The notes under the pieces: generated by a model
What the model saw: the letters and a program-made list of their open reading frames with translations, nothing else
Databases searched by the model: none
What the model was told of the DNA's origin: nothing
Made by a program: the position numbers and the translations under genes
Part shown: one piece after another, positions 7,552-31,120 of the stretch
How positions within the stretch are numbered: position 1 is the stretch's first letter
Layout of the letters: each line of letters starts with the position of its first letter
Source of the DNA: a bacterium
GTDB lineage: Bacteria; Zixibacteria; MSB-5A5; GN15; FEB-12
Reading direction: 5' to 3'
Assembly (NCBI GenBank): GCA_020444475.1
Contig: JAHLKV010000005.1
Coordinates: 299,080 to 331,079, forward strand
Length of the DNA: 32,000 nt

Positions 7552-7848
7552 ATGGAGCATTGTAGCCAAGCAAATGATCTTTTTAGTTCTCGCAATAATT
7601 ACGGGGCGATGGCGCCTCTGAAAGAACAAGAGAGGATCTGCCGCCAGCTGGGGAATGTGAAGGGCGTGGCAATATCGCTTGCCAATCAGTCCATCATCCT
7701 GGCCAAAGCGGGTCGGGTACAGGAAGGGTTGTCAAAGATAGAAGAAGCTCATCAGATGGCAGTCAAGTATGGTTACGCGGCTGTCGCGGCCCAAATCGAG
7801 CCAATGCTCTACGCCATCCGCCAGGCCGCGGAGGGGAGCAAACAGTGA
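7552..7848 (+). CDS. 98-aa stand-alone repeat/cap protein, paralogous to the C-terminus of the upstream STAND protein
   Basis: YGAMAPLKEQERICRQLGNVKGVAISLANQSIILAKAG.. follows the same 40-aa repeat grammar. The tail AAQIEPMLYAIRQAAE mirrors LRLEIEAVLKEIRQQIDE. AGGA lies 7 nt before ATG7552. Confidence 0.6.
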   Translation: MEHCSQANDLFSSRNNYGAMAPLKEQERICRQLGNVKGVAISLANQSIILAKAGRVQEGLSKIEEAHQMAVKYGYAAVAAQIEPMLYAIRQAAEGSKQ

Positions 7849-15003: not shown

Positions 15004-15135
15004 GGATGTGACCTGGTGTCTGGCACTGCCATTCGAGCGTCCGGAAGAGTGCGGAGGATAGTTGGAGAACAATGAAACTGATTGCCCATAGTCCGAACAA
15101 TGTCCTTTGTCGTTCAAATACGGGGGAACCTCGCT

Positions 15136-15648
15136 ATGACTGAAGACGTACAGGTCGATCCGCATGGTCTTAGAGAGTTGCTCGACAATTACCTGTCCAG
15201 AGCAGAGGCCGCCTGGCCAGGCGGGCAGGCGGCTGACTGGGCTCGCGAGTTTCTCCGGCGTTTCAAGTTAGACCGCGCCGACGAAGTGTGCCTTCTGGGA
15301 GCCGCATGCATGAGGGAGTCATTGACCGACGGCAAACGTCACAGTACTGCAGTCGCAAACTCTGATATATTTGTGTCGATTTCCACTTTTCCCTGTGGAC
15401 TGGAGGAGGCGCGCACAGCCTACTTCGCAAACGGCTATTTCGATTACCTGAACTCGATTCTGCGCGTTGCATTGACGGATAATCCCCGAAACCACTTCGT
15501 CCACATACTATTCTTCTGTGACCGAAAGAACTGTTGGGCGCAATTCACATTATTTCCCAATAGAGATAATCTGGGCTTTGATCCCCTGTATAGTCTTCCG
15601 GATGAACTATTGAGTGAATCGGAGAGACGCCAGGTGGGTCTCGCTTAA
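15136..15648 (+). CDS. Hypothetical protein (no recognisable motif)
   Basis: ORF ending at TAA15646-15648. GGGGGA lies 8 nt before ATG15136. ATG15100 and the track's 15082 are alternative starts. Confidence 0.5.
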   Translation: MTEDVQVDPHGLRELLDNYLSRAEAAWPGGQAADWAREFLRRFKLDRADEVCLLGAACMRESLTDGKRHSTAVANSDIFVSISTFPCGLEEARTAYFANGYFDYLNSILRVALTDNPRNHFVHILFFCDRKNCWAQFTLFPNRDNLGFDPLYSLPDELLSESERRQVGLA

Positions 15649-15735: not shown

Positions 15736-16059
15736 TCACTCCCCTCGGCGCCAGCGGCGCCAATCGGCGGCATGCTTCTTGATCCAGTCCATTGCCGCCG
15801 AGTCACCAACATCCATACCTGCCTTCTCGGACTCGATCCACTTATGCTTCTCTATCTCGCGCCATTGTTCGGTCAGTTCCTTGCGTAGCCGTTCATGCCG
15901 CCACTTCGAAGCGTGATGCACCAGCCAGTGGGCGATGGCGTAGGCCATCCCCACGTCGCGACCGGCCTCCTTTGACAGAAAGTACTTGTGTGTCTCGATT
16001 GCCTTCCGTTCCTCGCGGGTGAGTTCATCTTCCGAGTATTGATCGATCCTGTCACACAT
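15736..16059 (-). CDS. Small (107-aa) helical protein with an internal tandem duplication
   Basis: It has two copies of one motif: ETHKYFLSKEAGRDVGMAYAIAHWLVHHASKWR and EKHKWIESEKAGMDVGDSAAMDWIKKHAADWR. ATG16059 overlaps the upstream stop by 8 nt (ATGTGTGA), so it is preferred over the track's 16140 start. Confidence 0.65.
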   Translation of the reverse strand: MCDRIDQYSEDELTREERKAIETHKYFLSKEAGRDVGMAYAIAHWLVHHASKWRHERLRKELTEQWREIEKHKWIESEKAGMDVGDSAAMDWIKKHAADWRRWRRGE

Positions 16060-18016
16060 GTTGTTCGACCTCCGCAGATAATGCCCGTTGCTGATTCCGC
16101 CATCGCCAAAACTCCATGTGATGCAGGCGGGTGCGGGCATAGTGCAGGTGTGATGCGAGTTCGTCCGGGGCGACCACTACAAACTGACGAAATGTCTTCG
16201 ACGCCGCATCGGTGTCCCCAAGCGCGTCTTCGGCCAGTGCCTTCCAGTACAACGCAGCCGGGTGGCGGGCATCGATCGTGGCAGCTCGCTCGTAGCATTC
16301 GCGAGCTTGGGTACAGTGCGGATGCTCCGGGTCAAGGCCGGCCCCCCTCAACCCGGCCCCCTTCTGTCGCGCCCCCTTTAACAGGGCCTCAGCCTTGAGC
16401 ACCAGAGCATCCACGTGTCGATCGTTCTTTTCCAACACTCGGTTACAGACGGCAACAGCTTGCTTGAGCGATCTGGAGTCACCCATCGCGATTAGCGCCA
16501 GCGCCTTAGCGCACAAGGGTTCCGGAATGGCCGGGCTCGATACGGCTTCCGTTTTGAACTTCTCAAGCGCGGTCCTTAAATCGCCGTCGTGATAAGCCTG
16601 CAAACCTGTGACGTAGTCGTCTGTTGTTCGCTGAGCCTCCGATAACTGGCAACAGCTCAGCAATTCACTCAGATGACGCCGACGCGCCGCCACCAGATCG
16701 GCCTCGAATCTGGTTCCTTTGAAAAGGCCACTGTCATGATTCGCCAGTATCTCCTGCAGGCGTCGCTGTGCGTATTCGCGCTGCGGCTCACACGATGGCA
16801 GGGAGTCCATGACCAACTTCGCGTACGGTCTTGCGGCTTCAAACCATCGGCGCATTTCATCTTCGATGAGCGCTCTGAAGTACACCAGCGCGGGATTGTG
16901 CGGGTTGTTTACCGACACCTTCTCGAGGCAACGGACGGCATCCTCATCGCGCCCGAGCATCAGCAACGCCTCGGCTTTGGTCTGAGCAGCTGTGTAGTAT
17001 TCTGGCTTCTGCAGCAGAATAGCATCGCAAATGTCCACCGCTTCGGCGTGGCGGCCGAGCTGATTTAGTGCGTGAGCCCGGTTGTTCCCAGCGGCGAGGT
17101 CACGAGGATTATCGGTTACAGCCCGTGTGAAGCAGATCAGAGCTTTGCTCCACTCTCCGCGGCGACCGTGCCGGGCACCCTTTGACGCTTCGGGACTGAT
17201 TGTCCCGCCTCCAGACACGAAATGCTGTGTGTAGAGCCGATCAAGTTCTTCATTTCGCCTCGCAAGCAGGAAAGCAGTCTCGGCGCTCCGGCCGTCGCTA
17301 TCCCGAAGTTTGTAGGCGGCCCGCGTCTGCAGTTGGGCATCTCCATCCCACAAAGGTGGGCGTTCGACCCCAATTCGGTAAGCGAACAGTGCACGGTCGG
17401 TCATCCCGTGCGAACTGTGGCGATTGCCAAGATTCAGCCAGGGACGTACACATCTGCTGTCGGTCTGGATAGCCTTCAGATAGGTCTTGATCGCACCGGG
17501 GGTATCGCCCAACGATGCCTGCGAGGCGCCTTTGCCATTAAGCGCCTGAGCCAGCGAGGGATCGAGCAAAACGGCTTGATCGGCCAGAAAGATTGCTTTT
17601 CGGAAAAACTCCCTTGTGCCGGTGCTCCAGTGGGCTATGGTTTCGTACAACAGCAGGAGAGCACGATCTTTGTTGCACAGGGGGACGGAGGAATCCTCAT
17701 GGAACTCAGATGCGATGCGGGAAAGTTTCTTCGCCCATTTGTCATTTCTCTTGAAATCCACTCTGACGATGCGGGCGATACGCTGCGAAGGGTCAGAACT
17801 GTCGTTGAGAAGCCGCAGAACCGCGAAGACCCCGTCCCCCTTGTCAAAGTAATGCATTCGTTTCAAGACAGCCCCATCCATGGCTCTGACCGATTCACTG
17901 TCCAATGAACAATTCTGGTCGACGATATGGGTGGCCCGAAAGCCCACGTCCTGTCTAAGCAGGTAGAGAAAGAGACGATCCTCGGATGTAAACTGAATAT
18001 CAGCCAACTGATTCAT
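16052..18016 (-). CDS. TPR-repeat protein with an unassigned ~150-aa N-terminal domain
   Basis: Classical 34-aa TPR grammar, for example GDTPGAIKTYLKAIQTDSRCVRPWLNLGN and GRHAEAVDICDAILLQKPEYYTA. GAGGA lies 5 nt before ATG18016. Confidence 0.85.
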   Translation of the reverse strand: MNQLADIQFTSEDRLFLYLLRQDVGFRATHIVDQNCSLDSESVRAMDGAVLKRMHYFDKGDGVFAVLRLLNDSSDPSQRIARIVRVDFKRNDKWAKKLSRIASEFHEDSSVPLCNKDRALLLLYETIAHWSTGTREFFRKAIFLADQAVLLDPSLAQALNGKGASQASLGDTPGAIKTYLKAIQTDSRCVRPWLNLGNRHSSHGMTDRALFAYRIGVERPPLWDGDAQLQTRAAYKLRDSDGRSAETAFLLARRNEELDRLYTQHFVSGGGTISPEASKGARHGRRGEWSKALICFTRAVTDNPRDLAAGNNRAHALNQLGRHAEAVDICDAILLQKPEYYTAAQTKAEALLMLGRDEDAVRCLEKVSVNNPHNPALVYFRALIEDEMRRWFEAARPYAKLVMDSLPSCEPQREYAQRRLQEILANHDSGLFKGTRFEADLVAARRRHLSELLSCCQLSEAQRTTDDYVTGLQAYHDGDLRTALEKFKTEAVSSPAIPEPLCAKALALIAMGDSRSLKQAVAVCNRVLEKNDRHVDALVLKAEALLKGARQKGAGLRGAGLDPEHPHCTQARECYERAATIDARHPAALYWKALAEDALGDTDAASKTFRQFVVVAPDELASHLHYARTRLHHMEFWRWRNQQRALSAEVEQHV

Positions 18017-18026
18017 ATGCTATCCT

Positions 18027-19178
18027 CTAATCGATTCCATCTGAAACGGTGGGTCGCAGACGGTTGACCGCTTCAATAATACTCCTGGCTTGCGACTCGA
18101 GCGCGGCCGCGGCGTCGCAGAGCGCATCGTCACCTTTCAGGCTTGGAACGACCATGTCAAGTCTGTACAGGTTTGCGAACAGCAGCTTATAGATTGGCAC
18201 CTTCTGAGGTGGACATGGATCGCACCGAAGTTCCAGCTCAAGGTCAGACTTTGACTCATGGGCAAGACCAAACCAGCCGTCGAATGCGACCTCTGTCTCG
18301 AGAAACTCACGGAATGCCCTATTCAACCGAACGAAAAGCCGCGTCGCTATCTGGGGCAGGTTGGTGAGTTCCTGTCCGTCTCTCTTCGGCAAACTGTCGA
18401 GTAGCGCAGCAACCGCCTGCTGAGGGTAAACATCCTCAAAGAACCGTTTCTCGACGGGGCTTGCATGCACTCTGAGCGTACACAGATCAGCGCTCAGACA
18501 GAGGTACAAGATCTCCACTGCGCTCATGAACTGCGGCAGTTTGAAGTGATGGGCTGCGACGACCGCCGGACGTTGATCTTCATGCCACATGGCCGAGAGG
18601 CAGTAATGTCCTATGTGTTGCAGAAGGTCATCGGCGCAGGATTCTGGATTCTCAACGCCAGCACACTGCGTCGTCATGACTTCTGTACGGAATTGTGACA
18701 TGCGGAGGTAGTACGTTTCGTGGCCCATGTACATGTATCTGGCAAATCGGCTATCCGCAAACGGAAAGCCGGGACTTAGATAGATGTCCTCCACAACCAG
18801 GCTGTACTCCGACCAGTAATCGTGGGCTATCCGGCTCAGGCTGTAAGCCGGCAATCCGCGCGACGTTCTTCGAACGTCCAGGAAGTAGTGGCCGCTACCC
18901 ACCATCGATACCAGGCTTCGGAGTCTGTCCGGGCTAGTGAGAGGTGCTTCCTCCGGTTTGTGTTTAAGGGGTATGGCAACCGGCTCTCGCAGGAAGGCCG
19001 TGATCTCCTCCAGATCGTCGAATTCCCCACCGTTATTCTCAAGTTCCCTCCGGAAATCGTCGTACTTTCTCAAGCGGTCCACTAGTGGTCCCAAGACCTG
19101 CTTATCGTCCCGAAGCCCCGATTCTCTGCTATCGCAGTCGTACGAGGCACGTGAGCTTGTGTAGTAGTTGGACGTCAT
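18027..19178 (-). CDS. Hypothetical 383-aa protein (no recognisable motif, no obvious TM segment)
   Basis: Long ORF running from ATG19178 to TAG18027. It is packed 10 nt from the downstream gene and 29 nt from the upstream gene in the same operon. Confidence 0.75.
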   Translation of the reverse strand: MTSNYYTSSRASYDCDSRESGLRDDKQVLGPLVDRLRKYDDFRRELENNGGEFDDLEEITAFLREPVAIPLKHKPEEAPLTSPDRLRSLVSMVGSGHYFLDVRRTSRGLPAYSLSRIAHDYWSEYSLVVEDIYLSPGFPFADSRFARYMYMGHETYYLRMSQFRTEVMTTQCAGVENPESCADDLLQHIGHYCLSAMWHEDQRPAVVAAHHFKLPQFMSAVEILYLCLSADLCTLRVHASPVEKRFFEDVYPQQAVAALLDSLPKRDGQELTNLPQIATRLFVRLNRAFREFLETEVAFDGWFGLAHESKSDLELELRCDPCPPQKVPIYKLLFANLYRLDMVVPSLKGDDALCDAAAALESQARSIIEAVNRLRPTVSDGID

Positions 19179-19207: not shown

Positions 19208-21346
19208 TTAGAGGATCAACTGGTGACGTCGCTCTGCCATGCAGGAAGCTACATAGCGGCCAATCTTGTCGGTCACGGCAGTTTCATCTTCCAACTCGGC
19301 GTCGCTCAGAGCGATAGTCTTGTCAACAAGGTGCTCAAGCCCGGTCTCATTTGCGACACCAAGCCCGACGGTGGTAATGTGCAAGTCGGGTATGTCGTTT
19401 CGCCATGATCTCAGCAGTGAATGCACCTCCTCCTCGCCGCCAATGCCGGTATCAAACGACTCGTTCCATTTGCAGTCTGTGAGGTGGATCAGGTAGATGG
19501 TTCCACTTGTCAGCCTCCGAGCCTCGTCCATAATGTATGCCAGGGAGAGGGCGTCTTGCTGGATGCCTGTTCCGGTGTTCGGTAGTGATACCAGTGCTCT
19601 GGCGGCATCCTGATTGCTGGTAGCGACAGTTCGTCGTGGATGGGCAACCCATTGCACGAGAGGTCCCACCAAGCCGGAGCGTATGGCACCGCTGTGGTAC
19701 AGGCCCGCCAGCACCTGTACGTCGGATCGAGCGGTCGCCACTAGCCAGCTGCACGTGAGAATCTTGAGCACCCGCATCTGGTTCGAATCAAGAGACCCTG
19801 ACCCGTCGCAGGCGACTACCAGCAATGCCCGGCCGCGACGGTCCGGCTGACGGATCATCCGACTCCGGCGGAAGACGGCGGAGGACATATCGCCCAAAGC
19901 CAGCCTCGCCGGGTCAAGAGTACCACTCGTGCATACTCTCTGAGTTACGGGAACCCGCTCGACGCTGGGATATAGTATCCTTCGGATTGCATCGATGGTC
20001 GGGCGGCTTGCCTCCAGTAGCTCCGCTAACGCCACAATATCTTCCGAAAGCGCCACCGTGCAATCGAACTGCTCGCCGGTAACGGTCTCATCCGTGTCGA
20101 GGTTGACTGAGACGAGGTGTCCATCGGTCGGATTCCCCTCGATCGGACCGGTCTCGAACGCCCCGGAGATAAGAACGAACTCGAGCAGATCAGATCTCAT
20201 GTCCTCCCATTGAGCCTGTCTCCCAGAAGCCTCCCTCACGGCATTGTTGAAGTTAGCCAATGTGCGAGCACGCCATTCCTCATCGGACTCCTCTCCGAGA
20301 TGCTTCCTCAGAGCCATCAAGTCTCGCTCAAACTCGGATACCGGTTCGTCCGCCTTCCGTCCCAGCAAGTCGCTGACGTCGACCGAATCAAACAACCCAG
20401 GCTTTTGAGGTACGTCGGCAGGTCGTATGGCCAAGTTGTCATGATCCGTGGATGATCCCACTGCTTGTTCCCTGTGCAGCACTGTGTCCGTGTCGTGCGT
20501 CGACTTCTCACCATCCGCTTTCACCGCTGAACTCTCCTGTTCATCGAATGTATGGATCGTATCGAGGACGTTCTCACACAGCGCCTTGACCCACTCGCAT
20601 CCAAGATCCAGGAGGAGATCTGATCGGGTTGAGGAGAGCCGTTGTGTGAAACGCCGACAAACAGCTGCTGTGCTCGTCGCGAACAGGAAGGCAAGTGGAT
20701 GTTTGTTCATTGACAGATCTGTGGGTAGCACGTCGCCATACAGAACCGCAGTCTGGACAATATCCAGAATCGTATTGACCGAAGTTCGGTCACAGTGTGC
20801 GGCTACAAAGAGCCTGTATGCTTCTACCGGCTCCAGTCCCGATGCTCGCGACAGGTCTTCAAGCAATAGCCTGGTCTGGACACACCGAGTAATGCGCTTC
20901 GTGAGTTCCTCGAATACCGAACGGTTGATTGACCGATCGGCCGCATCCCCTGTTACTCCAAGAACTTCTCCAACGAATCGTTCGAGTAGTCGCCGGCTCG
21001 ATAATTCTCGATACTCAAGAAAAGCCGTGAGTCCAATAGCTGCAGAAGCTGCCATGCGAGCTGGATACGACGTGTAGCATGGGCTGAGCTGAGCCTGCAC
21101 CTTCGGCATCCCAGGAGACTGAGAAGGAATGCCAGCGTGAGTCGCCACAGCCCGCTGTGCCTCTCTTATCGCACGGGTCAGCAGACTCAGTGCCGAGAGT
21201 CGAATTCTATAGTCATTGGCAAACCGGAACGCGTCTCCAAGTCCGATCCCTGCCCAATCGGAGCGCGACCGTTTGCGTTCGATTGAACCGATGTTCGTAT
21301 GGTAGGCCTTAGTCTCGGCCCCGCCATGTCTAGATGTATCCGTCAT
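19208..21346 (-). CDS. NorD/CbbO-like protein with a C-terminal von Willebrand A domain
   Basis: ALLVVACDGSGSL carries the MIDAS DxSxS motif (19793-19807). NTGTGIQQD supplies the Thr and IHLTDCKW the Asp. The pre-vWA segment GTLDPARLALGDMSSAVFRR is typical of NorD/CbbO adaptors. ATG21346 lies 7 nt after the upstream stop; the track's 21481 start would overlap that gene. Confidence 0.85.
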   Translation of the reverse strand: MTDTSRHGGAETKAYHTNIGSIERKRSRSDWAGIGLGDAFRFANDYRIRLSALSLLTRAIREAQRAVATHAGIPSQSPGMPKVQAQLSPCYTSYPARMAASAAIGLTAFLEYRELSSRRLLERFVGEVLGVTGDAADRSINRSVFEELTKRITRCVQTRLLLEDLSRASGLEPVEAYRLFVAAHCDRTSVNTILDIVQTAVLYGDVLPTDLSMNKHPLAFLFATSTAAVCRRFTQRLSSTRSDLLLDLGCEWVKALCENVLDTIHTFDEQESSAVKADGEKSTHDTDTVLHREQAVGSSTDHDNLAIRPADVPQKPGLFDSVDVSDLLGRKADEPVSEFERDLMALRKHLGEESDEEWRARTLANFNNAVREASGRQAQWEDMRSDLLEFVLISGAFETGPIEGNPTDGHLVSVNLDTDETVTGEQFDCTVALSEDIVALAELLEASRPTIDAIRRILYPSVERVPVTQRVCTSGTLDPARLALGDMSSAVFRRSRMIRQPDRRGRALLVVACDGSGSLDSNQMRVLKILTCSWLVATARSDVQVLAGLYHSGAIRSGLVGPLVQWVAHPRRTVATSNQDAARALVSLPNTGTGIQQDALSLAYIMDEARRLTSGTIYLIHLTDCKWNESFDTGIGGEEEVHSLLRSWRNDIPDLHITTVGLGVANETGLEHLVDKTIALSDAELEDETAVTDKIGRYVASCMAERRHQLIL

Positions 21347-21353
21347 ATGGTTC

Positions 21354-22364
21354 TCAGAATAGATTAGCCGTGAGTGTCTTGTCCTCTTCCGGATTGCGCA
21401 TGCCGAACACCTCCTGCATGACCGATGGCAGGAGCTCCTTGTCCTTGGTATCCGCATTCCCAAGAATGGTGGCTTGCGCAACTTGCTGATGGGTCATGCC
21501 CGGCATGCTGTGCGCCTTTCGCAGGAAGGACAGATACCCGTGGATTGTCGGCGGCACCAGAGACTGGAGATTTCCTTCGCTCCGATGGCGACGAATGAGT
21601 CGGCCCAGCAGCACTATCTGGTTCACCAGTTCGGATTCAACGCCGATCTGCAGCGACTGTTCCGCCAGGCTCTGCAGTACCACCGATTCCAGCTCACTTG
21701 GCAGGTAGTCGATCGTAAGGTTGGAGCCGAACCGACGGCGCAGAGCATCATCAAGCGTCACCAATGTGTGGGTGGAGTCGTGTGCTGCCTGGTAATTGCT
21801 GTCCGCGATCCACGCTATTCCGTGACCGCTAATCCGTCTTCCGTCGGGCAGAACAATGTCGTCGTGCGTCATGAGGTCCAGTAGTCCTCCCTGGACGCTG
21901 GCAGCGTGTACCCGGCCCATTTCCCTCAGCCATACTACATTGTATGAGTCCTCGGGCGCGTCGGCCGCCTCGGTCAAGGACTGGACGAGTTGACTTGGTT
22001 CGTCAAATGTCGTGCCGTTCCTGATCGCGCGCCGCTGATACAACTCTCCGGGGGTTTCGTACACAGCCATCTCGACGGGGAAGAGCCGCACGGGCTTGAC
22101 CCGGTGACCGAGTTCCGAGCAGATTGCTTCGAAGTTTGCCGGAACCGTGCAGACGGCCTCGATCAGGCTGCTCTTTGCGGACCCGGTTGGACCGCTGACG
22201 TGTATGAACTCGTGAGCAACAATATCGTCCACCAGAGATTGGAGGTGCCACTTCAGCATATACAGCGGATGGCCATGCGTCGTGGGCAGAAGCTGCACGA
22301 GATCGGTTGGTCCCGCCTTGCGATACTCATCCTCGTTATCGACTCGAAAAACCTGGGCTGTCAT
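21354..22364 (-). CDS. AAA_5 (MoxR/CbbQ/NorQ-like) ATPase
   Basis: Walker A GPTGSAKS at 22170-22193. The Walker B position reads VVWLRE (21921-21938). LLDLMTHDDIVLPDGRRISGHGIAWIADSNY fits the AAA_5 core. AAGGGGA precedes ATG22364. Confidence 0.9.
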   Translation of the reverse strand: MTAQVFRVDNEDEYRKAGPTDLVQLLPTTHGHPLYMLKWHLQSLVDDIVAHEFIHVSGPTGSAKSSLIEAVCTVPANFEAICSELGHRVKPVRLFPVEMAVYETPGELYQRRAIRNGTTFDEPSQLVQSLTEAADAPEDSYNVVWLREMGRVHAASVQGGLLDLMTHDDIVLPDGRRISGHGIAWIADSNYQAAHDSTHTLVTLDDALRRRFGSNLTIDYLPSELESVVLQSLAEQSLQIGVESELVNQIVLLGRLIRRHRSEGNLQSLVPPTIHGYLSFLRKAHSMPGMTHQQVAQATILGNADTKDKELLPSVMQEVFGMRNPEEDKTLTANLF

Positions 22365-22383: not shown

Positions 22384-24645
22384 TTACTTGTGTAGAGTCA
22401 ATGCCAGTTTCGTGGTATCCGCAAATCCCACGTCCAGAGTTGACCCGGTGCATTCTGCGAGTTCGCTGCGAATCGTCAGCAGGGCCTGCGTGACCAGCAA
22501 ACGGGTCTGTTCAGCAACAACCCGGGCACCGTGGCTTATGAGACCAGATCCCAGTGACGCTACGACTTTCTCTCCGGTCTCGGGCGAAATTGTGATATGC
22601 GGAACAGAGACGCCAAGCACCCGCAGACCTCTCTTGAGCGATGTCAACAGTTCCCGTTCGGCTATCATTGCCAGATCCGATCCGGTGAGCGGAGCAAACA
22701 GAATTGGCCGTCCCACGCGGCTAAGGAATGCGTTCGAAAACAGTGACTTGATCTCTGCCTCGATGTTCTGCTGCAGCACAGCGCCCGATGGTGTTCCGCT
22801 AAAGCCTATGCTTCGCCGGAGTCGTTCATCCCGTCCTTCGGGGAGGTTGATGGTGAAGGCGAAAATCAGATTCGCACACGAGAACATCGCTCCCGTCGCG
22901 CTTTGCGCCTCACCTGTATCCAGTAACTGCAGGAATAAGTCAGCCAGGTGACTCCGTACAGCGACCGGAGCGTGGTCCAGGTCACTGACTTCGACTATGG
23001 CCCCAACTGAGTGTTTGGCTGCCTTTTCCAGGCGACCGGCCTCGTAAGAACCCACGATCCCCCGACCGGATCCCAGCAACTGGGCGCTCGCCGTGTGGTA
23101 ATCGGGCTGACTTGCCGCATCTATGTTGATGTGCGGAATCTTGAGGTAGCGAGCCAGCAAGGCCGCACTTTCGGACTTTCCAGTGCCCGGCGTCCCTTGG
23201 GCACAATAGCGTATCGGTTGATGGTCGGCGCGCGTGAGGCACTCTGTCTGAAGTCGACCGACCAGTTGCGAGAGAGCCTCGTCTTGCGCATACAAGTGCG
23301 CTGACAGGAATACCAGCAGGTCGGACGCGAGCAATCCTCGCACGAAATTCTCGTGAACCTGCGGCTTCCTTCTGCCGCGCGGTTTGTCGTGAATGCCGGC
23401 CAGCGTTTCTTGTTTACCGATCAGTCTATTGACAAACGCGGCAATCGACTCTCCATTCACCGCCATCTCTGAGTCGTCATGCCTCGTTACCCTTGCCGCA
23501 ATAACGGGAAGCATTCGCTGCCGCTCTGTCTCGGCCAGGGGGCGAAGTGCATCCAGCGCAGTCTCGTAAGCCCGCTCGACCCTTGCCCCCGATACTCCCC
23601 CTGATTGTCGGGCCGCAGATTCAACCGCGAACCGCGCCAATACATCGAATGGTATATCGGGCACGTAAGAAACCACCGGCAGCAGCGGATCACTCACTCC
23701 GCCCTGACCGCCATGAAAAACTGCCTGCAATTGCCGATAGTGCCCTGTGAATACCACCGGCTTATCCGATGACGACAGGATAGAAAGCAAACTCTGCAGT
23801 TGGTCGCCAAGTTCGTATGGACTCGTTGCTAGTGCGACACGACTTGCCGGCACCACCAGCCGGCCTGGTGCCTGCCTGGCCAGTTCAACGATATTCTTCG
23901 CACTGAGAGCAGGTGCCAGTACCATGCCAAGAGTCACACCACGGGTCTCTGCTGATCGTGCTAGTGATGCCATCGCAATATCCAGTATGATTGGCGATTC
24001 CGCGGCGACCGCCACGTTCAATGAACTTTCGAGCAAGTCCATGACCTCGCATGCCCAGGAACCCAGAGTCACTATGGAGTCATCATTTGTTTGATCCAGT
24101 GGCCACACCGGGCTCAGAACCTGGCCAAAATCAGCATACAGGCGCTCGAGTTCAGCAGCACTGTGCTGACGCGGTAACTCCGATTGAACCCATCGTGCGA
24201 AATTGTCGATCGCTTCCAACTCCGCCATCAGAACTGCCTCACGCGACATACTCAGGGGAGAGGTCGCCTTTACCTTCAGGCCGAGCCAGTACGTGGTCGT
24301 CTTCTTGACTGCGTTCGAGGTCGGCGGCAGCGAACGAACACCTTCACTGAGGCCAGACATATGTTTCCAGAGCGATGCCAGCGGAGGTTTGACCTCAGTA
24401 GGAGCTTCCAGACACTCGAGTTTCATCCATAGAATCGGCCCCTCGTGTAGTCGTGCGACTACGGACCTCACCCCTTGTCGCTCGCTTGTCGGTTCGGCTG
24501 TCCGAAACGACCGCCCATCGGGCAGCTTCATGATCTCGAAGCCGTAGACTCTCTTTACCAGTTCACTGACCTGCCACAGCACATCCGCAGCGCCCACATC
24601 TGCCGCTGTTGGTTGACACGCGGGGTTGGTTTGAGATTCTGTCAT
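22384..24645 (-). CDS. ClpA/ClpB-NBD2-like AAA+ protein with a ~470-aa unassigned N-terminal region
   Basis: QDEALSQLVGRL..IRYCAQGTPGTGKSESAALLARYL has its Walker A at 23173-23196. LLGSGRGIVGSYEAGRLEKAAK parallels Clp's LIGAPPGYVGYEEGGQLTE. IVEVSDLDHA (22975-22998) sits at the Walker B position. FLSRVGRPILFAPL parallels Clp's FLNRIDxIIxFxPL. Confidence 0.85.
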   Translation of the reverse strand: MTESQTNPACQPTAADVGAADVLWQVSELVKRVYGFEIMKLPDGRSFRTAEPTSERQGVRSVVARLHEGPILWMKLECLEAPTEVKPPLASLWKHMSGLSEGVRSLPPTSNAVKKTTTYWLGLKVKATSPLSMSREAVLMAELEAIDNFARWVQSELPRQHSAAELERLYADFGQVLSPVWPLDQTNDDSIVTLGSWACEVMDLLESSLNVAVAAESPIILDIAMASLARSAETRGVTLGMVLAPALSAKNIVELARQAPGRLVVPASRVALATSPYELGDQLQSLLSILSSSDKPVVFTGHYRQLQAVFHGGQGGVSDPLLPVVSYVPDIPFDVLARFAVESAARQSGGVSGARVERAYETALDALRPLAETERQRMLPVIAARVTRHDDSEMAVNGESIAAFVNRLIGKQETLAGIHDKPRGRRKPQVHENFVRGLLASDLLVFLSAHLYAQDEALSQLVGRLQTECLTRADHQPIRYCAQGTPGTGKSESAALLARYLKIPHINIDAASQPDYHTASAQLLGSGRGIVGSYEAGRLEKAAKHSVGAIVEVSDLDHAPVAVRSHLADLFLQLLDTGEAQSATGAMFSCANLIFAFTINLPEGRDERLRRSIGFSGTPSGAVLQQNIEAEIKSLFSNAFLSRVGRPILFAPLTGSDLAMIAERELLTSLKRGLRVLGVSVPHITISPETGEKVVASLGSGLISHGARVVAEQTRLLVTQALLTIRSELAECTGSTLDVGFADTTKLALTLHK

Positions 24646-24715
24646 TGGTCCATGCCGAGGTTTGTCGGCGCCCCGTTAAGATTGTTGATTGCACATTTCG
24701 GTGACACTCTTCCAT

Positions 24716-24731
24716 TGCACACTCCGTGCCT
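24716..24731 (-). promoter_or_regulatory. Candidate sigma54 (-24/-12) promoter for the minus-strand operon
   Basis: The minus strand reads AGGCACGGAGTGTGCAAT, against the consensus TGGCACG-N4-TTGCW. GG and GC are separated by exactly 10 nt. The site is intergenic, about 70 nt upstream of ATG24645, and divergent from a sigma54-activator-type gene. Confidence 0.5.
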
Positions 24732-24811
24732 GCGCGAAACACGAACCTGGATCCGCTTGTAAGACAGTCCGTTATCCAGTCGTGCGGTTTCCTGCGGGAT
24801 CATGACATCCG

Positions 24812-24840
24812 TTGACTTGGGATTGCCCCGATGTTATCTT
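24812..24840 (+). promoter_or_regulatory. Candidate sigma70-type promoter for the activator-like gene
   Basis: TTGACT (24812-24817), a 17-nt spacer, then TATCTT (24835-24840). It lies about 80 nt upstream of ATG24920. Confidence 0.35.
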
Positions 24841-24919
24841 GTATTGATTTGCCCATGATCCTGTTGAGTTGTGTGGGTAACCCTTCCCGGGGCAGCACCG
24901 ATTTACGGAGACACGAGCC

Positions 24920-26614
24920 ATGCAGATAGACACCATTCGATTTTATGGGTATCCGTCCGCCAACTCACCTTCCCCCTATATTCTCGCTTTCGAAACGGCT
25001 GACGACCTGAAAAGAGCTCGTGAGAACATCCGCCTTGGCGCATTGCTCATGCGAAACGATGATCTCGAAGAACTCTGTGAATACGAAACCGTCATCCGCG
25101 ATCGTGGGAAGAAACACCCCGCCAGGAGTCTCCTTAGCTATTTCCTTCACGGGAAGCGGACCCGCTCCGATACCCGCATGCCGATTCTTCGCTGTGAGTA
25201 CATCGAAGCGGGGCGGTTGATAGCGAGTGTCGCGGGCTTGCTTGACCATGCAGCAGACCGGGGAGTACGCAACACCTACATCCTGGGGGTTCAGCCAGAC
25301 ATCTTCGAGGAGTGCTTGAGAAGTATCGAGGGCGATTCGGCAGGGTATGGCGGTGCCCATTGTGCTGCCTCGAAGGCAGAACTGACGGATCGCCCAGTAG
25401 CGGAAGAGATGCTGGATATTCTGACCATCAGGGAGGTTCCGGAAGCAGTCTCTTCGCTGTACCTCGGTACTTCGAAAGAGGTACAGCTGGTGCATCAGCT
25501 TATCCTGCGTACGGCCGAAATCACCGATCCGGTCCTCATCGTTGGAGAGAGTGGCACAGGAAAGGAACTGGTTGCCCGCTCGATACATGAGCAGAGTACA
25601 AGACGAACGGGGCCGTTTCGGGCGGTCAACTGCGGCGCCATTCCCACCGAACTCTTTGAATCGGAACTATTCGGAACCACGAAGAGCGCATTTACGAATT
25701 CTGCCGAGAGGGAGGGCCTCTGGGCGCAGGCGAATGGCGGCACGCTGTTTCTCGATGAAATCGGCGATCTGTCGCTTCTCCATCAAGTAAAGATTTTGCG
25801 CGCTCTGGAAGACGGTTACGTGCGTCGGGTCGGCGGCAACATCGATGAGCCGATCGATGCCAGGATTGTCAGCGCGACCAATCGGGATTTGGCCGTCATG
25901 GTCAAGGAGGGTCAATTCCGGGAGGATCTTTATTATCGGATTCACGGCATCGTGATCTATACGCCGGCGCTGCGAAACCACCCGGACGATATTCCACAAA
26001 TGGCGATCAGTTTCTGGTCGAAGATCGCGGGGAAGAAGACGAAGGCTCTGTCGACGGCGGTGTTGGAGGATCTCAAGGCCCGACGCTGGCTCGGCAACGG
26101 TCGGGAGTTGAGGATGTTCCTTTCGTCTCTGCACGGGCTCTTCAGAAACGAGACGATCACGCCTCACCACCTGCGGGTGGTCGACATGCTTTCCGGGTTT
26201 CGGTCGCGGAAGGGTTCGCAGGCGCAGTACGAAAAGAACCTCCGCAAGGTTGATCAGTTACGGCACTACCGGAGAATCATGGAAGTACTCTCTTCGCTCC
26301 GTACCTCGCTTCGTCCCGTGCTGATCGAGAACCTGACCGACCTTCGCACGGTTACCCTCGCGCGAGTGGTCATCAACAGCTATGCGGAGAAACTCGACTC
26401 ACTCGCCGATGAACCCGAGTACTTCAGCAGTATCGCCTCGCGCCGGGTGGTGATTGAACTGGCCGATGCTCTGCGTGACTTCTCGAAATTTCTCGAGACC
26501 GGCGCCGGACAGGTAAGGGAGTACTGGCAGCGCAATGTGCAGTCGCGCTACCAGAATGTCGACTCCGGCTGCTTCACCGAAATCCAGACCCTCCTCGACG
26601 AGGTCGAGAAATGA
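24920..26614 (+). CDS. Sigma54-interaction-domain (NtrC-type, bEBP-like) AAA+ protein with a variant GAFTGA loop and no recognisable HTH
   Basis: Central-domain motifs present: GESGTGKELVARSIH (25544-25567), ESELFGTTKSAFTNS (loop at 25682-25702), GGTLFLDEIGDL, DARIVSATNRDL, FREDLYYRI, PALRNHPDDI, GNGRELR. The ~190-aa N-terminal and ~150-aa C-terminal regions match nothing I recognise. Confidence 0.9.
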   Translation: MQIDTIRFYGYPSANSPSPYILAFETADDLKRARENIRLGALLMRNDDLEELCEYETVIRDRGKKHPARSLLSYFLHGKRTRSDTRMPILRCEYIEAGRLIASVAGLLDHAADRGVRNTYILGVQPDIFEECLRSIEGDSAGYGGAHCAASKAELTDRPVAEEMLDILTIREVPEAVSSLYLGTSKEVQLVHQLILRTAEITDPVLIVGESGTGKELVARSIHEQSTRRTGPFRAVNCGAIPTELFESELFGTTKSAFTNSAEREGLWAQANGGTLFLDEIGDLSLLHQVKILRALEDGYVRRVGGNIDEPIDARIVSATNRDLAVMVKEGQFREDLYYRIHGIVIYTPALRNHPDDIPQMAISFWSKIAGKKTKALSTAVLEDLKARRWLGNGRELRMFLSSLHGLFRNETITPHHLRVVDMLSGFRSRKGSQAQYEKNLRKVDQLRHYRRIMEVLSSLRTSLRPVLIENLTDLRTVTLARVVINSYAEKLDSLADEPEYFSSIASRRVVIELADALRDFSKFLETGAGQVREYWQRNVQSRYQNVDSGCFTEIQTLLDEVEK

Positions 26615-28797
26615 CAGCGGCGAAACCGCTTCGCGTATTCCTCAGCTACGGGCATGATGCCAATGAGGAACTGGTTCTTCGCATCCATGCCGACCTGGAG
26701 AATCGTGGTCACGATGTCTGGATCGACAAGAAGGAGATCAGACCGGGCGACGATTGGCGGCGTGAGATCACCGAGGGCATTCTCAACAGCCACCAGGTAC
26801 TGTCATTTCTCTCAAAGCACTCCACCCGCGATCCCGGCGTCTGTCGCGACGAGATTGCCATCGCCCTCGGCGTGAAGGGTGGCAACATCCAGACCATACT
26901 GGTCGAAAGCGAAACTGACGTCCAACCGCCTGTGAACATCAGTCATGTTCAATGGCTCGATATGCACGACTGGAAGGACGGGCATGGTGTTGTGCACATC
27001 GTGAAAGGCGAACCCGCTGCCGGTGATACAACCTGGGAAGAATGGTACCAGACCAGGTTCGCCGAAATTGTCCGGGTGGTGGAAAGCGAACCCAGCGTCC
27101 GCTTTGCCGGCGAGATAGAAACGCTCAACGGTTATCTGAAACCAATCCAGTCGGAAGCCCGCATATTCGAGCTACTCAGAAAAGGCTACGTTGGGCGCGA
27201 GTGGCTCTTTGAGGCCATAGAGCAGTGGCGGCAGGACAAGGCAGGCAAGTCACGACTCTTCTGGATCATGGGTGAGCCCGGGGTCGGCAAGAGCGCCTTT
27301 GCCGCCCAGTTAACTCACACGCGGGGCGATACCGTTATCGCAGCCCAGTTTGTCGAATGGGACAAGCCGGATCACAGGAGTCCTGAGCGCGTCGTCCGCA
27401 GTATTGCCTTCCAGCTCGCTACCCGGCTTCCGGATTATCGCAAGCTATTGCTGACTCTGCCGGAGATTGCGAAACTGGACGGGAAGAACGCGGCGGATCT
27501 GTTTGACTACCTTCTGGCTCACCGGCTGAAGTCGGCTATTGGTGGCGGGCGCGAGCGGTATCTGGTCGTGATAGATGCCCTCGATGAAGCAGGCGATCAT
27601 GGGCGCAACCCGTTAGCGGAAATGCTTGCACGTCACGTCGGGCGTCTGCCCGATTGGCTGGGAATTGTCGTGACCAGCCGCTCCGAGTTTGATGTCAAGA
27701 CTCCGTTCCAGGCGTTGAATCCCATTCCATTCGATACTCAGTCTGAGTCCAACCGTACCGATCTCTGCTACTACCTTCAACAAAGGCTCGCTCCGCAACT
27801 CGATAACCGCTCCGACGCCGATCACCTCCTCGACCAAATCATAGACAAGAGTGAAGGCGTGTTCCTCTATGTTGAGCGGTTCTGTGACGATGTGCAACAG
27901 GACCATCTTTCACTGGACCACCCGGACCAGTTCCCGCAAGGCCTCGGTGGCATCTACTACCAGTGGTTTCAGCGGCAATTCCCCGATCCTGAGCAATTCG
28001 AGCAAACGATTGAACCGATGCTCGGCGCAATCCTCGCCGCTCGAGAGCCGTTGCCAATCGAGGTATTGCAGGGGCTGTTCGGTTGGCGCGAACCCGAGCT
28101 TCGCAAATGGCTTCGCATACTCGGCTCTCTCTTTCCGGTCAACGACGGATCCCAGGGTCAGGTTATCAGACCGTACCACAAGTCATTTGCTGACTGGCTG
28201 ACCGACGCGGAAAAGGCGGGACAGTTCTTGGTTAGCCGATCAGAAGGCTGCCGCCTGCTAGCCTGTCGCGGAATGAGCGAGTTTCGTCAACGTGCTCAGA
28301 CTATGCCGAGATATTGGGTGGCTCACTTGGCAGATCACCTCGTCGAACAACAAGAATCAGATGATCTCGAAGAACTACTCTGTTCATTCGAATTCCTGAG
28401 AGAGTATTCGAAGTATATTGGTCTTTCGTACACACCAGGGAATGAGTTTGCTGCCCGCGTTCAGCAATTCCTGGATACTCTTATTGAGCAAGACCGTCCG
28501 GCGGATCAGAAGCTGGAAGGATTATGCGCGCACATTACAGAGCTTGCAGCAGGATTAGACCTATGGGCGGTCCGCTATGTTGGAGGTCCAGATCCTAAAG
28601 CAGTCTGCAGAAACTGTGGTCAAGCTGGGATCATCCACGGTCACGTCGATCTAGGTGGCGTTGACTACTATGACAATTACTTTGCGTTCTGTACAAACTG
28701 CTTTTGGGCTTTTTTCACGGAACAGTACGCAATGTGGGGTTCGGAGGAAGCCGTTTGGGACTTTGACTATGCGACGAATACGTATCATTGGCCGTGA
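26611..28797 (+). CDS. TIR - NACHT/STAND P-loop NTPase with an unassigned C-terminal module ending in a CxxC..CxxC motif
   Basis: LRVFLSYGHD and GVCRDEIAIAL, with the TIR Glu at 26851-26853. Walker A GEPGVGKS at 27271-27294. Walker B LVVIDALDEA. CRNCGQ..FCTNC at about 28605-28708. ATG26611 overlaps the upstream TGA (ATGA). Confidence 0.9.
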   Translation: MTAAKPLRVFLSYGHDANEELVLRIHADLENRGHDVWIDKKEIRPGDDWRREITEGILNSHQVLSFLSKHSTRDPGVCRDEIAIALGVKGGNIQTILVESETDVQPPVNISHVQWLDMHDWKDGHGVVHIVKGEPAAGDTTWEEWYQTRFAEIVRVVESEPSVRFAGEIETLNGYLKPIQSEARIFELLRKGYVGREWLFEAIEQWRQDKAGKSRLFWIMGEPGVGKSAFAAQLTHTRGDTVIAAQFVEWDKPDHRSPERVVRSIAFQLATRLPDYRKLLLTLPEIAKLDGKNAADLFDYLLAHRLKSAIGGGRERYLVVIDALDEAGDHGRNPLAEMLARHVGRLPDWLGIVVTSRSEFDVKTPFQALNPIPFDTQSESNRTDLCYYLQQRLAPQLDNRSDADHLLDQIIDKSEGVFLYVERFCDDVQQDHLSLDHPDQFPQGLGGIYYQWFQRQFPDPEQFEQTIEPMLGAILAAREPLPIEVLQGLFGWREPELRKWLRILGSLFPVNDGSQGQVIRPYHKSFADWLTDAEKAGQFLVSRSEGCRLLACRGMSEFRQRAQTMPRYWVAHLADHLVEQQESDDLEELLCSFEFLREYSKYIGLSYTPGNEFAARVQQFLDTLIEQDRPADQKLEGLCAHITELAAGLDLWAVRYVGGPDPKAVCRNCGQAGIIHGHVDLGGVDYYDNYFAFCTNCFWAFFTEQYAMWGSEEAVWDFDYATNTYHWP

Positions 28798-28967: not shown

Positions 28968-29162
28968 GTGACTGGAGCAGGTGTGAGAGATCGCGTGTTT
29001 ATAAGCAACAGCCACAAAGATCGTACGTGGTTGGGGCGGCTTCGTGTCGAGCTGGAACCCGGAATCAGTGAGAAACGGGACGATTGCTGGGACGACTCCG
29101 ACTCTTGGCTTCATGCAAGTGCTGTGTTCGAGAGGACGAGAGCGGGAGGCGGAGCCGAGTGA
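28968..29162 (+). pseudogene. 64-codon TIR N-terminal fragment (relic or mini-ORF)
   Basis: RVFISNSHKDRTWLGRLRVELEPGISEKRDDCWDDS matches the opening of bacterial TIR_2-type domains, then the similarity ends. None of the three frames continues a TIR. The stop TGA overlaps GTG29159 of the next gene. Confidence 0.45.
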
Positions 29163-29935
29163 ACGCGAAACAGGGCAGTTCAAAGACCGGCGCATGGATT
29201 TTCGTCTCCCACTCGCATCGAGATCTGGGGCAAGTCCGCCAAATCCGCAATGAGCTCGAGAAGCTTGGCCATAATCCGCTGCTCTTTTTCCTCAAATGCC
29301 TGAGCAGCGACGATGCCCGCCTGCCCCAACTCATTCGCGACGAGATTGAAGCCCGCGAATGGTTCATCCTCTGCGATAGCCCCAACGCCAGGCGCTCCGG
29401 CTGGGTGCAGCAGGAGAGGAAGTTGATCAAGGCGATGACGGGAAAGGTCATCGAGACGATAGATTTGAGCAAGGATCCCCAAACCGAACTTCACAAACTG
29501 ATCCGTCTTTCCAAACGTGCCACGGTCTTTCTTTCCTATGCCCGGCAAGACCGCGAAATCGCAGAGCGGATACGACGCGCTCTGCTTGAGCATGATTTCG
29601 GCGTTTGGTTCGATGCGTCGGTCCCAGCGGGGCAGGATTGGGCGGTGGCCATCCAGTCGGCGATTGATGACGCGGTCGCCCGTGGTTTCGTGCTTGTCCT
29701 GTTGAGTCCGGCATCACTGGCAAGCCAGTTTTGCAAGCATGAAACAGAGTATGCTCTCCAGCTCGCTGTACGCTCGCAACGTAGTAACGTCATCCCGGTT
29801 GTGGTCGCTCCGTGTGCGCACGAGGCGTTGCCGGTGCCGCTTGGGAACATCCAATTGTTCGACCTGACAACCGGCCCGTTTGACGAACGTATGAGCTCGC
29901 TCATTCACAACCTGAAGACTCGCAAAATGGAGTGA
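29159..29935 (+). CDS. Tandem TIR-TIR protein
   Basis: TIR 1: WIFVSHSHRD..SGWVQQERKL, with Glu at 29414-29416. TIR 2: VFLSYARQD..SQFCKHETEYA, with Glu at 29741-29743. GGGAGG at 29144-29149 lies 9 nt before GTG29159, so GTG29159 is preferred over the track's TTG29084. Confidence 0.85.
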   Translation: MNAKQGSSKTGAWIFVSHSHRDLGQVRQIRNELEKLGHNPLLFFLKCLSSDDARLPQLIRDEIEAREWFILCDSPNARRSGWVQQERKLIKAMTGKVIETIDLSKDPQTELHKLIRLSKRATVFLSYARQDREIAERIRRALLEHDFGVWFDASVPAGQDWAVAIQSAIDDAVARGFVLVLLSPASLASQFCKHETEYALQLAVRSQRSNVIPVVVAPCAHEALPVPLGNIQLFDLTTGPFDERMSSLIHNLKTRKME

Positions 29936-29938
29936 CGC

Positions 29939-31120
29939 GTGAGTGAATCGCCAATCAAGACACCTCGGACAAGAAAAGCCCCGCGCTCCGAGGCTCGTGA
30001 ATACTGTTTTGTCATCATGTCCTACCGACCGCGGTCGCAGTACGATCGAGTCTATCAACAGCTTTGCCAACTAATCGAAAGCAACTGCGGCCTGCGCTGT
30101 GTCCGTGCTGACCGCGAACCAGAACCAGGGCGCGACTTGCTGGGCAAGGTGCATGAGAAGATTCTTGGCTCTAGCGTCGTTGTTGCTGACGTAACAGAGT
30201 ATAGTCCAAACGTCTATTACGAATATGGTTACGCCAGCGCTCACGATCGCCTGCCGATTCTCATTGCGAAGCGCGGAGCGAGACTTCCCACGGATCTGGT
30301 CGGGAAGGAGGTATTGCGTTATAAGGGAACACCGGCAGTTGACAGGAAGTTTTCAAAGGACCTTATAGACTGTGTCAACCGGGAGTTGTGCTCGCCACTG
30401 CCCGAGCAGCGGAGAATGCTCGCAAGCGCACGTCCGTTTCCTGCTTATCTTGCCACCGCACCGCGCGTGCCGGGTGCGGGTTCGAAACACTGGTGGCACC
30501 CGGATGAAGGACAGACTTTTGGTGACATGCTTGGAGTCGCGGGCATCCTTACGGCCTACGGAAATCTTTTCGGAACGCGGAAGATTCCGCACCTACTGCA
30601 TGCGCAATGCGTCCACGCTGATGTGCTGGCACTACCTGCGTCCTTCTTCTGTATAGGTTCTCCAAAAGTGAACAAGGTTACCGGACACTTTCTTCCCTGG
30701 GTGCAGAGAGGACTTGTACCATTCTGGGAGATGCCAAGACTTGGGCGAAAGCCCGACAGGCGCGTCGTGATCAAGGGGGATCCGGATCTGGATGACCTAT
30801 TGAAACTACCGGTTGAGAAAAAGCGAGATGGCTCAATTAGTGATTACGGGCTGATAATTCGTGCGCCCCATCCATTGGATTCCCAGCACTTGGTCTTGAT
30901 TATGGCCGGCCGGCACAGCATTGGAACTCACGCCGCATGCATGATGGTAACCAGGCAGGAACTAATCAGCGCTCTTGAGCTGCGCCTCAAGAGACTTGGG
31001 GTATCGCTACGCGAAACTGCGCAGCCGTTCTGGGGTGTCGTAAGAGGAACACTGCTGTCCCAGGGAGAGATGCTATCGGAGGTTGAGATCGTCAAGGTGG
31101 GTGGGTACGTTCCCGGTTGA
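29939..31120 (+). CDS. Protein with an N-terminal TIR/nucleoside-2-deoxyribosyltransferase-like Rossmannoid domain and an unassigned C-terminal domain
   Basis: CFVIMSYRPRS..VVVADVTEYSPNVYYEYGYASAHDRLPILIAK fits the FVIMPF..aDlt..npNVfyElGyA pattern of NDT/TIR-like modules. GGAG lies 6 nt before GTG29939, which is 3 nt after the upstream stop. Confidence 0.75.
   Translation: MSESPIKTPRTRKAPRSEAREYCFVIMSYRPRSQYDRVYQQLCQLIESNCGLRCVRADREPEPGRDLLGKVHEKILGSSVVVADVTEYSPNVYYEYGYASAHDRLPILIAKRGARLPTDLVGKEVLRYKGTPAVDRKFSKDLIDCVNRELCSPLPEQRRMLASARPFPAYLATAPRVPGAGSKHWWHPDEGQTFGDMLGVAGILTAYGNLFGTRKIPHLLHAQCVHADVLALPASFFCIGSPKVNKVTGHFLPWVQRGLVPFWEMPRLGRKPDRRVVIKGDPDLDDLLKLPVEKKRDGSISDYGLIIRAPHPLDSQHLVLIMAGRHSIGTHAACMMVTRQELISALELRLKRLGVSLRETAQPFWGVVRGTLLSQGEMLSEVEIVKVGGYVPG

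Follow-up and report, generated by a model that had tools for sequence, protein, structure and literature searches.

What switches on a rare five-gene operon embedded among TIR and STAND genes is the question raised by a 32,000-nt stretch of a Zixibacteria genome (GenBank assembly GCA_020444475.1, contig JAHLKV010000005.1, forward-strand positions 299,080 to 331,079; hereafter the window, whose first letter is position 1). The operon (g1–g5) is encoded on the minus strand and begins at ATG 24645, and a gene for an atypical protein resembling the bacterial enhancer-binding proteins (bEBPs) diverges from it on the plus strand (24920–26614). Between the two, an initial annotation made from the sequence alone had proposed a sigma-54 promoter of the -24/-12 type aimed at the operon, together with a duplicated octamer. 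At such promoters the sigma-54 closed complex is silent until an AAA+ activator remodels it. By following this element through related loci, we conclude with high confidence that 24731–24716 (minus strand) is a functional sigma-54 promoter and the main start of g1–g5, and we infer that its activity depends on sigma-54 in vivo. The promoter itself is of an ordinary type; it is the regulatory module around it that is interesting and uncharacterised.

A -24/-12 element faces the five-gene operon

Read from 24731 to 24716, the minus strand is AGGCACGGAGTGTGCA, i.e. AGGCACG-GAGT-GTGCA, and the site was identified by direct reading, by a weight matrix and by its orthologous position in related loci. 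Its GG (24730/24729, -25/-24) and GC (24718/24717, -13/-12) are separated by the 10-nt gap canonical for sigma-54, exactly as the initial annotation had it. The 16-mer ends 71 nt before ATG 24645, the start of a 753-aa open reading frame (ORF), in agreement with the ~70 nt given earlier, and it is oriented away from the 24920–26614 gene, whose description as a sigma-54-activator-type AAA+ is borne out by a match to Pfam Sigma54_activat (2e-59). Two mismatches to a TGGCAC-N5-TTGCW-like consensus were found, at -26 and -15, of which the G at -15 is not counted as a defect because this position varies in all orthologues. By standard sigma-54 numbering, with the C of the GC as -12, the transcription start is predicted at 24705 (minus strand), which would leave a leader of ~59 nt before ATG 24645. 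A promoter scan found no sigma-70-like site on the minus strand between 24400 and 25100.

Several observations within the window weigh against a promoter here. Sites matching TGGCACG-N4-TTGCW with at most two mismatches number five, versus 5.5 expected from shuffles of the window; the 16-position sigma-54 matrix was built on the published consensus and is approximate, not a curated PromScan matrix; and the top matrix match in the window is another site, 23929–23914, which lies inside g1 and outscores the candidate. The first and the last of these would suit the view that the element is a chance match, or else a conserved site for some factor other than sigma-54, with the operon transcribed from a sigma-70-type promoter, for which the minus-strand scan gave no candidate. 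The 23929–23914 site was rejected as a promoter: since it lies within g1, codes for a conserved LGMV (Leu-Gly-Met-Val) peptide and is absent from every orthologue, it is a coding by-product.

On the other side, the core GGCAC-N6-TGCA occurs only once in the window versus 0.21 expected, and the element scored 13.9 bits, ranking second among 63,970 positions on both strands and being the sole good matrix match in the intergenic DNA of the window. The earlier statement that the other TGGCAC hexamers lack a correctly spaced GC was too strong, as three of the 18 hexamers in the window have one (1781+, 4135+ and 31643-). Of these three only 31643–31628 scored well (12.2 bits), and it was dismissed as a promoter, being within a coding region that runs off the window end. 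The window alone decides nothing on the promoter, and the matter is settled by comparison with related loci.

Conservation of the promoter across related loci

Loci carrying g1 were collected through an alignment-based search of genome contigs, a single-sequence g1 query having given none, and every position of each locus was scored on both strands with the same matrix. The main count comprises 17 loci fetched through g1, all with g1 at the head of the operon and with DNA available upstream of it; one further locus, L027, was chosen through the activator and is treated as an extra. A site ranking first to third in its whole locus was found 40–139 nt upstream of g1 on the correct strand in 14 of the 17 loci, in twelve of them as the top-ranked site, and the corresponding count with L027 included, where the site sits in an activator–g1 gap of 106 bp, is 15 of 18 distinct loci, at distances given as 13–139 nt from g1. 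The probability of such a placement per locus, on a simple null for position, is p = 0.004–0.02.

Conservation of these sites follows the pattern of sigma-54 promoters: there is no variation in GG or TGC over the 17 sites compared (12/12 in the first consensus set, and likewise in the later ones), the spacing is fixed, and the spacer and flanks vary, yielding the consensus T-GG-C-A-Y-G-N4-n-TGC-W with a variable -15. Likewise, an alignment of four intergenic regions displayed GGCA[CT]-N7-TGC[AT] unchanged while the adjoining bases diverge, and GG-N10-GC with its TGC stays in place over orthologous loci with protein identities of only 37–77%. In a blind test, three of the 17 loci, fetched later without regard to promoter sequence, all carried the site, namely L023 from Acidobacteriota, L024 from Thermodesulfobacteriota, and L025. 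This pattern and the recurrence of a top-three site at the orthologous place argue strongly against chance or a non-sigma-54 factor, a reading to which we now give next to no probability.

The remaining loci are also informative. L006 has the gene order g2-g3-g4-g1 and no site upstream of g1, which, given that order, would need no promoter of its own, and L008 has neither the site nor an upstream copy of the repeat described below; both serve as negative controls. The best site of L007 is in the activator–g1 gap ~500 nt upstream, L010 has a weak site 13 nt ahead of its estimated start and a single repeat copy, and L020 and L022 carry a g1 fragment upstream. Among the named relatives are Acidobacteriota and Thermodesulfobacteriota; the latter is the group richest in bEBP genes, and rpoN is effectively absent from Actinomycetota only (PMC12316311). 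The promoter and its upstream repeats are found before the same operon in about a dozen distantly related bacteria, mostly beside the unusual activator gene and its TIR partner, and because of this joint conservation the promoter is very probably real. The proposal of a sigma-54 promoter aimed at the minus-strand operon therefore receives strong support from phylogenetic footprinting and from the upstream repeat array.

An enhancer-like repeat array and the activator's own promoter

Upstream of the promoter a second conserved element was observed, made of A-N-TCAA-Y copies with the core aA(C/G)TCAAC. In the window three copies lie on the minus strand: CAAGTCAAC at 24811–24819 (~-112), CAAATCAAT at 24843–24851 (~-144) and CAACTCAAC at 24863–24871 (~-164). 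A copy at -110 to -116 is present in 8 loci; the second copy has the same position in L001 and L025 and lies at -141/-142 in L012 and L004; the third is again at the same position in L001 and L025, and at -162 in L002. Relative to the promoter, the repeat positions are similar also in L002, L004, L012 and L017. Five A-N-TCAA-Y motifs were counted in the window versus 1.9 expected, three of the five within this 60-nt stretch, and in the related loci the density of the motif in the g1 upstream region is ~6- to 60-fold above that of the rest. With spacings of 32 and 20 nt, near three and two helical turns, the repeats look like the enhancer geometry of a sigma-54 activator, with the copies on one face of the helix.

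The same repeats meet the promoter of the divergent gene. A scan predicted a sigma-70-type promoter for the activator/TIR operon, TTGACT-N17-TATCTT (24812–24840, plus strand), 79 nt before ATG 24920, and the -112 repeat copy read on the other strand is TTGACT, i.e. the -35 hexamer of this promoter. The promoter is kept in L001, L002, L004 and L025 with the same hexamers, spacing and distance, and a more distant clade has a TTGAGT version of the -35. Because the -112 copy overlaps this -35, occupancy of the repeats is expected to feed back on activator expression, and we infer that the activator is autoregulated through this copy. A perfect 8-nt inverted repeat, GGATCATG / CATGATCC at 24797–24804 / 24854–24861 with 49 nt between its arms, was also seen; it brackets the sigma-70 promoter of the activator and two of the repeat copies.

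Copies of the repeat were further found away from g1. At L026, where neither a g1 operon nor a good sigma-54 site is close by, an activator-family gene has arrays of three to four ACTCAAC copies on either side (5594–5928 and 7663–7711), one of the arrays running at a regular 15–18-nt spacing directly past the activator stop codon. At L027, ACTCAAC/GTTGAGT copies together with a -24/-12-like element stand before two small genes encoding 128 aa and 134 aa (9379–9399 and 12433–12511), the elements reading AGGTACGAGACTTGCA and TGGCACAGAATTTGTA, the latter with GT at -12. This suggests that the repeat marks a small regulon with targets beyond the g1 operon. L028, where the activator-family protein has a loop without Phe-Thr, contains neither repeats nor sigma-54 sites.

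The divergent bEBP-like protein is the most likely activator

The plus-strand gene at 24920–26614 encodes an atypical bEBP-like protein of 564 aa, comprising an N-terminal domain (residues 1–141), an AAA+ domain (~180–425) and a C-terminal helical bundle (434–563). Its AAA+ core matches PF00158 (Sigma54_activat) at 2.2e-59, carries Walker A and B motifs and has the bEBP fold. Profile comparison gave E ~1e-96 versus FleQ and NtrC, and the model (predicted local distance difference test score, pLDDT, 86) superposed in Foldseek on NtrC1, FleQ, ZraR and PspF with a root-mean-square deviation of ~2 A and a target template modelling (TM) score of ~0.9. The family comprises ~100 full-length proteins of roughly 560 aa. 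The closest relatives, 77, 60 and 51% identical, share the gene arrangement of the window, with 255–275 bp between their activator gene and the divergently transcribed g1–g5 operon. Altogether, an activator gene diverging from g1 was seen in 12 loci (the window, L001, L002, L004, L007, L013, L015, L021, L023, L024, L025 and L027).

The N-terminal alpha/beta domain (24920–25342) models well alone (pLDDT 86, predicted TM score 0.74) and contains a DRGxKH motif whose R62, G63 and K65 show little or no variation across the family. A Pfam search with five orthologues gave nothing for it at E <= 5, PDB sequences gave nothing at E <= 10, and among PDB folds the best hit had only E = 0.4 with TM < 0.3. 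It may be an undescribed sensor domain.

Three features speak against this protein as the activator. Firstly, its sigma-54-contact loop is SAFTNS versus the usual GAFTGA, the first Gly and the last Ala both being replaced by Ser. Secondly, it has no recognisable DNA-binding domain: a Fis-type helix-turn-helix (HTH; PF02954) was found neither in it nor in the ~100 full-length family members, and its C-terminus, modelled as four long helices (434–563), gave only a Pfam match of 0.046, to a DUF. Thirdly, L009, L012, L017 and L019 keep the promoter and repeats, and the DNA searched upstream of them (<=4 kb; <1 kb for L009) yielded no activator gene, so that at these loci the activator may be encoded elsewhere or be a different protein. 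As for what stands there instead, the divergent gene of L019 (2243–3622) encodes a 459-aa protein with a SorC-type sugar-binding-like C-terminus and is followed by a TIR-STAND gene, and that of L017 (288–3728) encodes a DUF4062-NACHT-TPR protein.

Each of these features would be accommodated if the promoter is real and sigma-54-dependent, and the 564-aa protein instead remodels the TIR-STAND protein or other proteins, a canonical bEBP encoded elsewhere binding the repeats and firing the promoter. The occurrence of the wider family without the g1 operon (L026 and L028), some members lacking Phe-Thr, points in the same direction. However, the activator gene diverges from g1 in the 12 loci listed above, which span distant lineages; the g1-linked clade retains A-F-T in the loop (SAFTNS, HAFTNA, SAFTGA, NAFTDA and NAFTGA); the activator gene has flanking repeat arrays also where g1 is missing (L026); and the member that has lost Phe-Thr (L028) is the one with neither repeats nor sigma-54 sites. 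Moreover, some true bEBPs have no DNA-binding domain, such as FlgR of Helicobacter and CtcC of Chlamydia, which also counts against a separate activator. The Asn of SAFTNS is itself compatible with function, since replacement of the second Gly of the NorR GAFTGA by Asn, as by Asp, Ser, Gln, Cys or Met, still allows open complexes to form and renders the protein constitutive (PMC2941729). We therefore consider a separate activator quite unlikely and regard the divergent 564-aa protein as most likely the activator of the promoter, a cognate role that is proposed rather than read off its domains because of the SAFTNS loop and the missing HTH. The family member of L028 (6001–7671) has the loop GSHSTA and is in an operon with RyR-domain, WD40, ThiF and JAB-like genes; this branch may no longer work through sigma-54.

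A proposed mechanism

On this basis the module might work as follows. RNA polymerase with sigma-54 (E-sigma54) would bind GG(-24)/TGC(-12) as a closed complex and stay silent until remodelled by the AAA+ activator. The divergent 564-aa bEBP-like protein would assemble on, or be recruited near, the repeats at ~-112, -144 and -164. The sigma-70 promoter TTGACT-N17-TATCTT would express both the activator and a translationally coupled TIR-STAND protein, with occupancy of the repeats feeding back on it. The operon would be off by default and turned on only once a signal, plausibly connected with the TIR-STAND partner, reaches the novel N-domain of the activator. A more specific version, in which the TIR-STAND protein detects an invader, an NAD-derived product or a direct contact switches on the activator, and the activator then opens the promoter of a five-gene effector operon, is put forward tentatively and we think it rather improbable as it stands.

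The second octamer and the leader

The window contains two copies of the octamer ATTGCACA and no others. One, at 24714–24721, holds the -12 element; at the other, 24688–24695, the minus strand reads TGTGCAAT, and this copy corresponds to +11 to +18 of the predicted leader. The duplication noted initially, with the second copy 26 bp downstream in the predicted leader, is thereby confirmed, and the two copies lie in a longer direct repeat, ATTGCACAyTyCG, that matches at 11/13 bases and has the same 26-nt spacing. Window-wide the pair is unremarkable (2 copies versus 0.87 expected), and the recurrence of any octamer of the 16-mer within 60 nt is modestly unusual (P ~0.015).

The suggestion that the second copy is a conserved operator or a defective -12-like site did not hold, as it is absent from L001, L002, L004 and L025, and a GG 12 nt upstream is lacking. 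For the same two reasons, the missing GG and the lack of conservation among the nearest relatives, it was rejected as a second sigma-54 site. Another possibility is that the second copy and the adjacent AATCAAC form a leader operator, at which a bound protein, possibly the same one that binds the repeats, blocks or modulates transcription after initiation. AATCAAC is an extra copy of the repeat motif (24684–24690, minus strand, ~+15 of the leader) that overlaps the second octamer by 3 nt, and a comparable leader copy was seen only in L024 (+23). Such an operator would fit this overlap and the local recurrence, and a similar hint comes from L009. There, the word GAAATGTGCAA, inside which the second octamer sits and which the window has in common with L009 alone, and the word CTTAACGG are identical to those of the window and at the same offset from -12 (24668–24702, minus strand, in the window and 887–912 in L009), even though the two g1 proteins are only ~49% identical, and GAAATGTGCAA/CTTAACGG are absent from closer relatives. 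In the window an 8-nt insertion, tcaacaat, between GAAATGTGCAA and CTTAACGG creates the repeat-motif copy. Against an operator, the second octamer is missing not only from the four loci named above but also from the L013 clade, and the structure of the whole leader RNA is not unusual (z = 0.04). We hold a leader operator to be possible and rather doubtful; in our view the second ATTGCACA copy amounts to no more than a leader element restricted to a clade, outside the core mechanism.

Short hairpins were also seen in the leaders. Just ahead of the g1 ribosome-binding site (24650–24665) the window has GCCGA-caaacc-TCGGC, and L001 has GCCGA-gtgatt-TCGGC; leaders of the distant clade (L013, L015 and L021) carry hairpins of other sequence at a similar place, agccgccg...cagcggct versus agccggcg...aaccggct.

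The target operon, the TIR-STAND partner and the island

The operon predicted to be driven by the promoter consists of five minus-strand genes. The first, g1 (22384–24645), encodes 753 aa with a Clp/Cdc48-like AAA_2 domain at residues 483–644; g2 (21354–22364) encodes a MoxR-like AAA_5 ATPase of 336 aa, on a weak match of 2.4e-5; g3 (19208–21481) and g4 (18027–19178) encode conserved proteins of ~710–757 aa and 383 aa, respectively; and g5 (16052–18016), the last gene, encodes a 654-aa TPR-repeat protein. The listed start of g3 is probably too early, because homology begins at residue 46–69, and its true start is probably ~21345. No Pfam match at E <= 1, vWA included, was obtained for g3 and g4 in four loci. 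In PADLOC, g2–g5 gave no match and g1 gave only weak AAA+-core matches to candidate models such as PDC-M37B, and none of g1–g5 matched a named defence family. With 88 clusters in a set of 5.8 billion proteins, the g1 family is a rare one, and it bears no functional name. At 658 aa, the NCBI g1 protein (P0121) spans 87% of the 753-aa ORF. As g1 orthologues of 740–765 aa are conserved from residue 1 (M1, Q5 and D21-V26), the deposited start is probably ~95 codons too far downstream, and an error of this kind would hide the link between promoter and gene.

Directly after the activator, and overlapping its stop codon (ATGA), starts the gene of a 728-aa TIR-NACHT/STAND protein (26611–28797, plus strand). 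A TIR gene follows the activator also in L001, L002, L004, L024 and L025, and it overlaps the activator stop codon in the closest relatives. This TIR partner appears to keep the catalytic glutamate, the putative residue being located by eye in GVCRDEIAIAL; the alignment to solved structures ended before the catalytic region.

The window as a whole is a dense island of STAND, TIR, DUF4062 and RyR genes, and the related loci are likewise. Its further members are a DUF4062-STAND-TPR gene (3411–7508), an AAA-RyR gene (8000–11155), a TIR-NB-ARC-TPR gene (11206–15003), a gene for a double-TIR protein (29084–29935) and one for a weakly TIR-like protein of 393 aa (29939–31120). ORFs 650–2248, 2642–3109 and 15082–15648 had no Pfam match, and a membrane-protein-like ORF runs off the right end of the window.

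Implications and comparison with known systems

The conserved module links a rare five-gene AAA+/TPR operon, a distinct activator family and TIR or TIR-STAND genes. Because a sigma-54 promoter gives essentially no transcription until its activator acts, the operon probably encodes costly or toxic products that are reserved for the arrival of a signal, as one would expect for an inducible immune effector. If the rather improbable invader-sensing version given above were true, the module would amount to a defence regulon that is inducible and enhancer-dependent, carries aA(C/G)TCAAC repeats as its mark and is spread over Acidobacteriota, Thermodesulfobacteriota, a Victivallales metagenome-assembled genome (MAG) and unclassified MAGs. 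We know of few defence-related systems under a dedicated bEBP, RtcR being the main example. In practical terms, the promoter and repeat signature offers a sequence handle for further regulon members, with two candidate targets already given by L027, and the promoter allows reporter assays for the inducing signal. The enhancer-like array and the divergent activator promoter were identified in this analysis. Their context, which combines an unusual activator family, a TIR partner and an uncharacterised operon within defence islands, is not described in the literature searched, nor did that literature yield an account of a TIR-linked operon under sigma-54 control.

In its architecture the module resembles the classical bEBP systems. 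As at norR-norVW, pspF-pspABCDE and NtrC at glnAp1/glnAp2, a -24/-12 promoter with GG-N10-GC is accompanied by a divergent gene for a PF00158 activator; several upstream sites lie ~100–160 bp from the promoter and are phased by whole helical turns; and one site overlaps the sigma-70 promoter of the activator itself, the usual basis of autoregulation. It differs from them in that the activator has no Fis-type HTH, no known sensor domain and the loop SAFTNS rather than GAFTGA, and in that short direct or mixed-orientation 7–9-mers take the place of the usual dyads. Furthermore, whereas the classical modules serve metabolism or envelope stress, the target operon here stands with a TIR-STAND gene in a defence island. 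The AAA+ domain of FleQ is among the best PDB matches to the activator, and the repeat core GTCAA/TTGAC resembles a half-site of the FleQ binding consensus, GTCaNTAAAtTGAC. FleQ, however, binds DNA by a C-terminal HTH, which the activator here lacks, and the repeats are not in the dyad arrangement of FleQ sites.

RtcR is a CARF-domain bEBP that activates the RNA-repair operon rtcBA from a sigma-54 promoter. The two systems are alike in having a dedicated bEBP divergent from a sigma-54 operon and in a biology of conflict or stress, and the RtcR models of PADLOC are the best defence-library matches to the activator, although over the AAA+ core only (residues ~179–420). They part in the sensor, RtcR having a CARF domain whereas the N-domain here has no match to CARF or another PDB fold and the protein has no HTH, and in the targets, RtcA and RtcB being unrelated to the operon genes. 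A further point in common is an N-terminal ligand-sensing domain proposed to gate the AAA+ ring (PMC7790460).

As for the operon itself, the MoxR-vWA ternary conflict systems share with it the combination of a MoxR-like AAA_5 protein, a further classical AAA+ protein and a TPR protein, as well as surroundings of STAND, TIR, DUF4062 and RyR genes (PMC7159879). They differ in their vWA component, for which the sequence-based search of g3 and g4 in four loci at E <= 1 gave no match. Kaur, Burroughs, Iyer and Aravind (2020; PMC7159879) mention NtrC-like ATPases in a passing remark as possible threshold-setting controls, and a search of their paper found neither sigma-54 promoters nor the present activator family described. 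The MoxR-vWA conflict systems are the nearest described theme for the operon.

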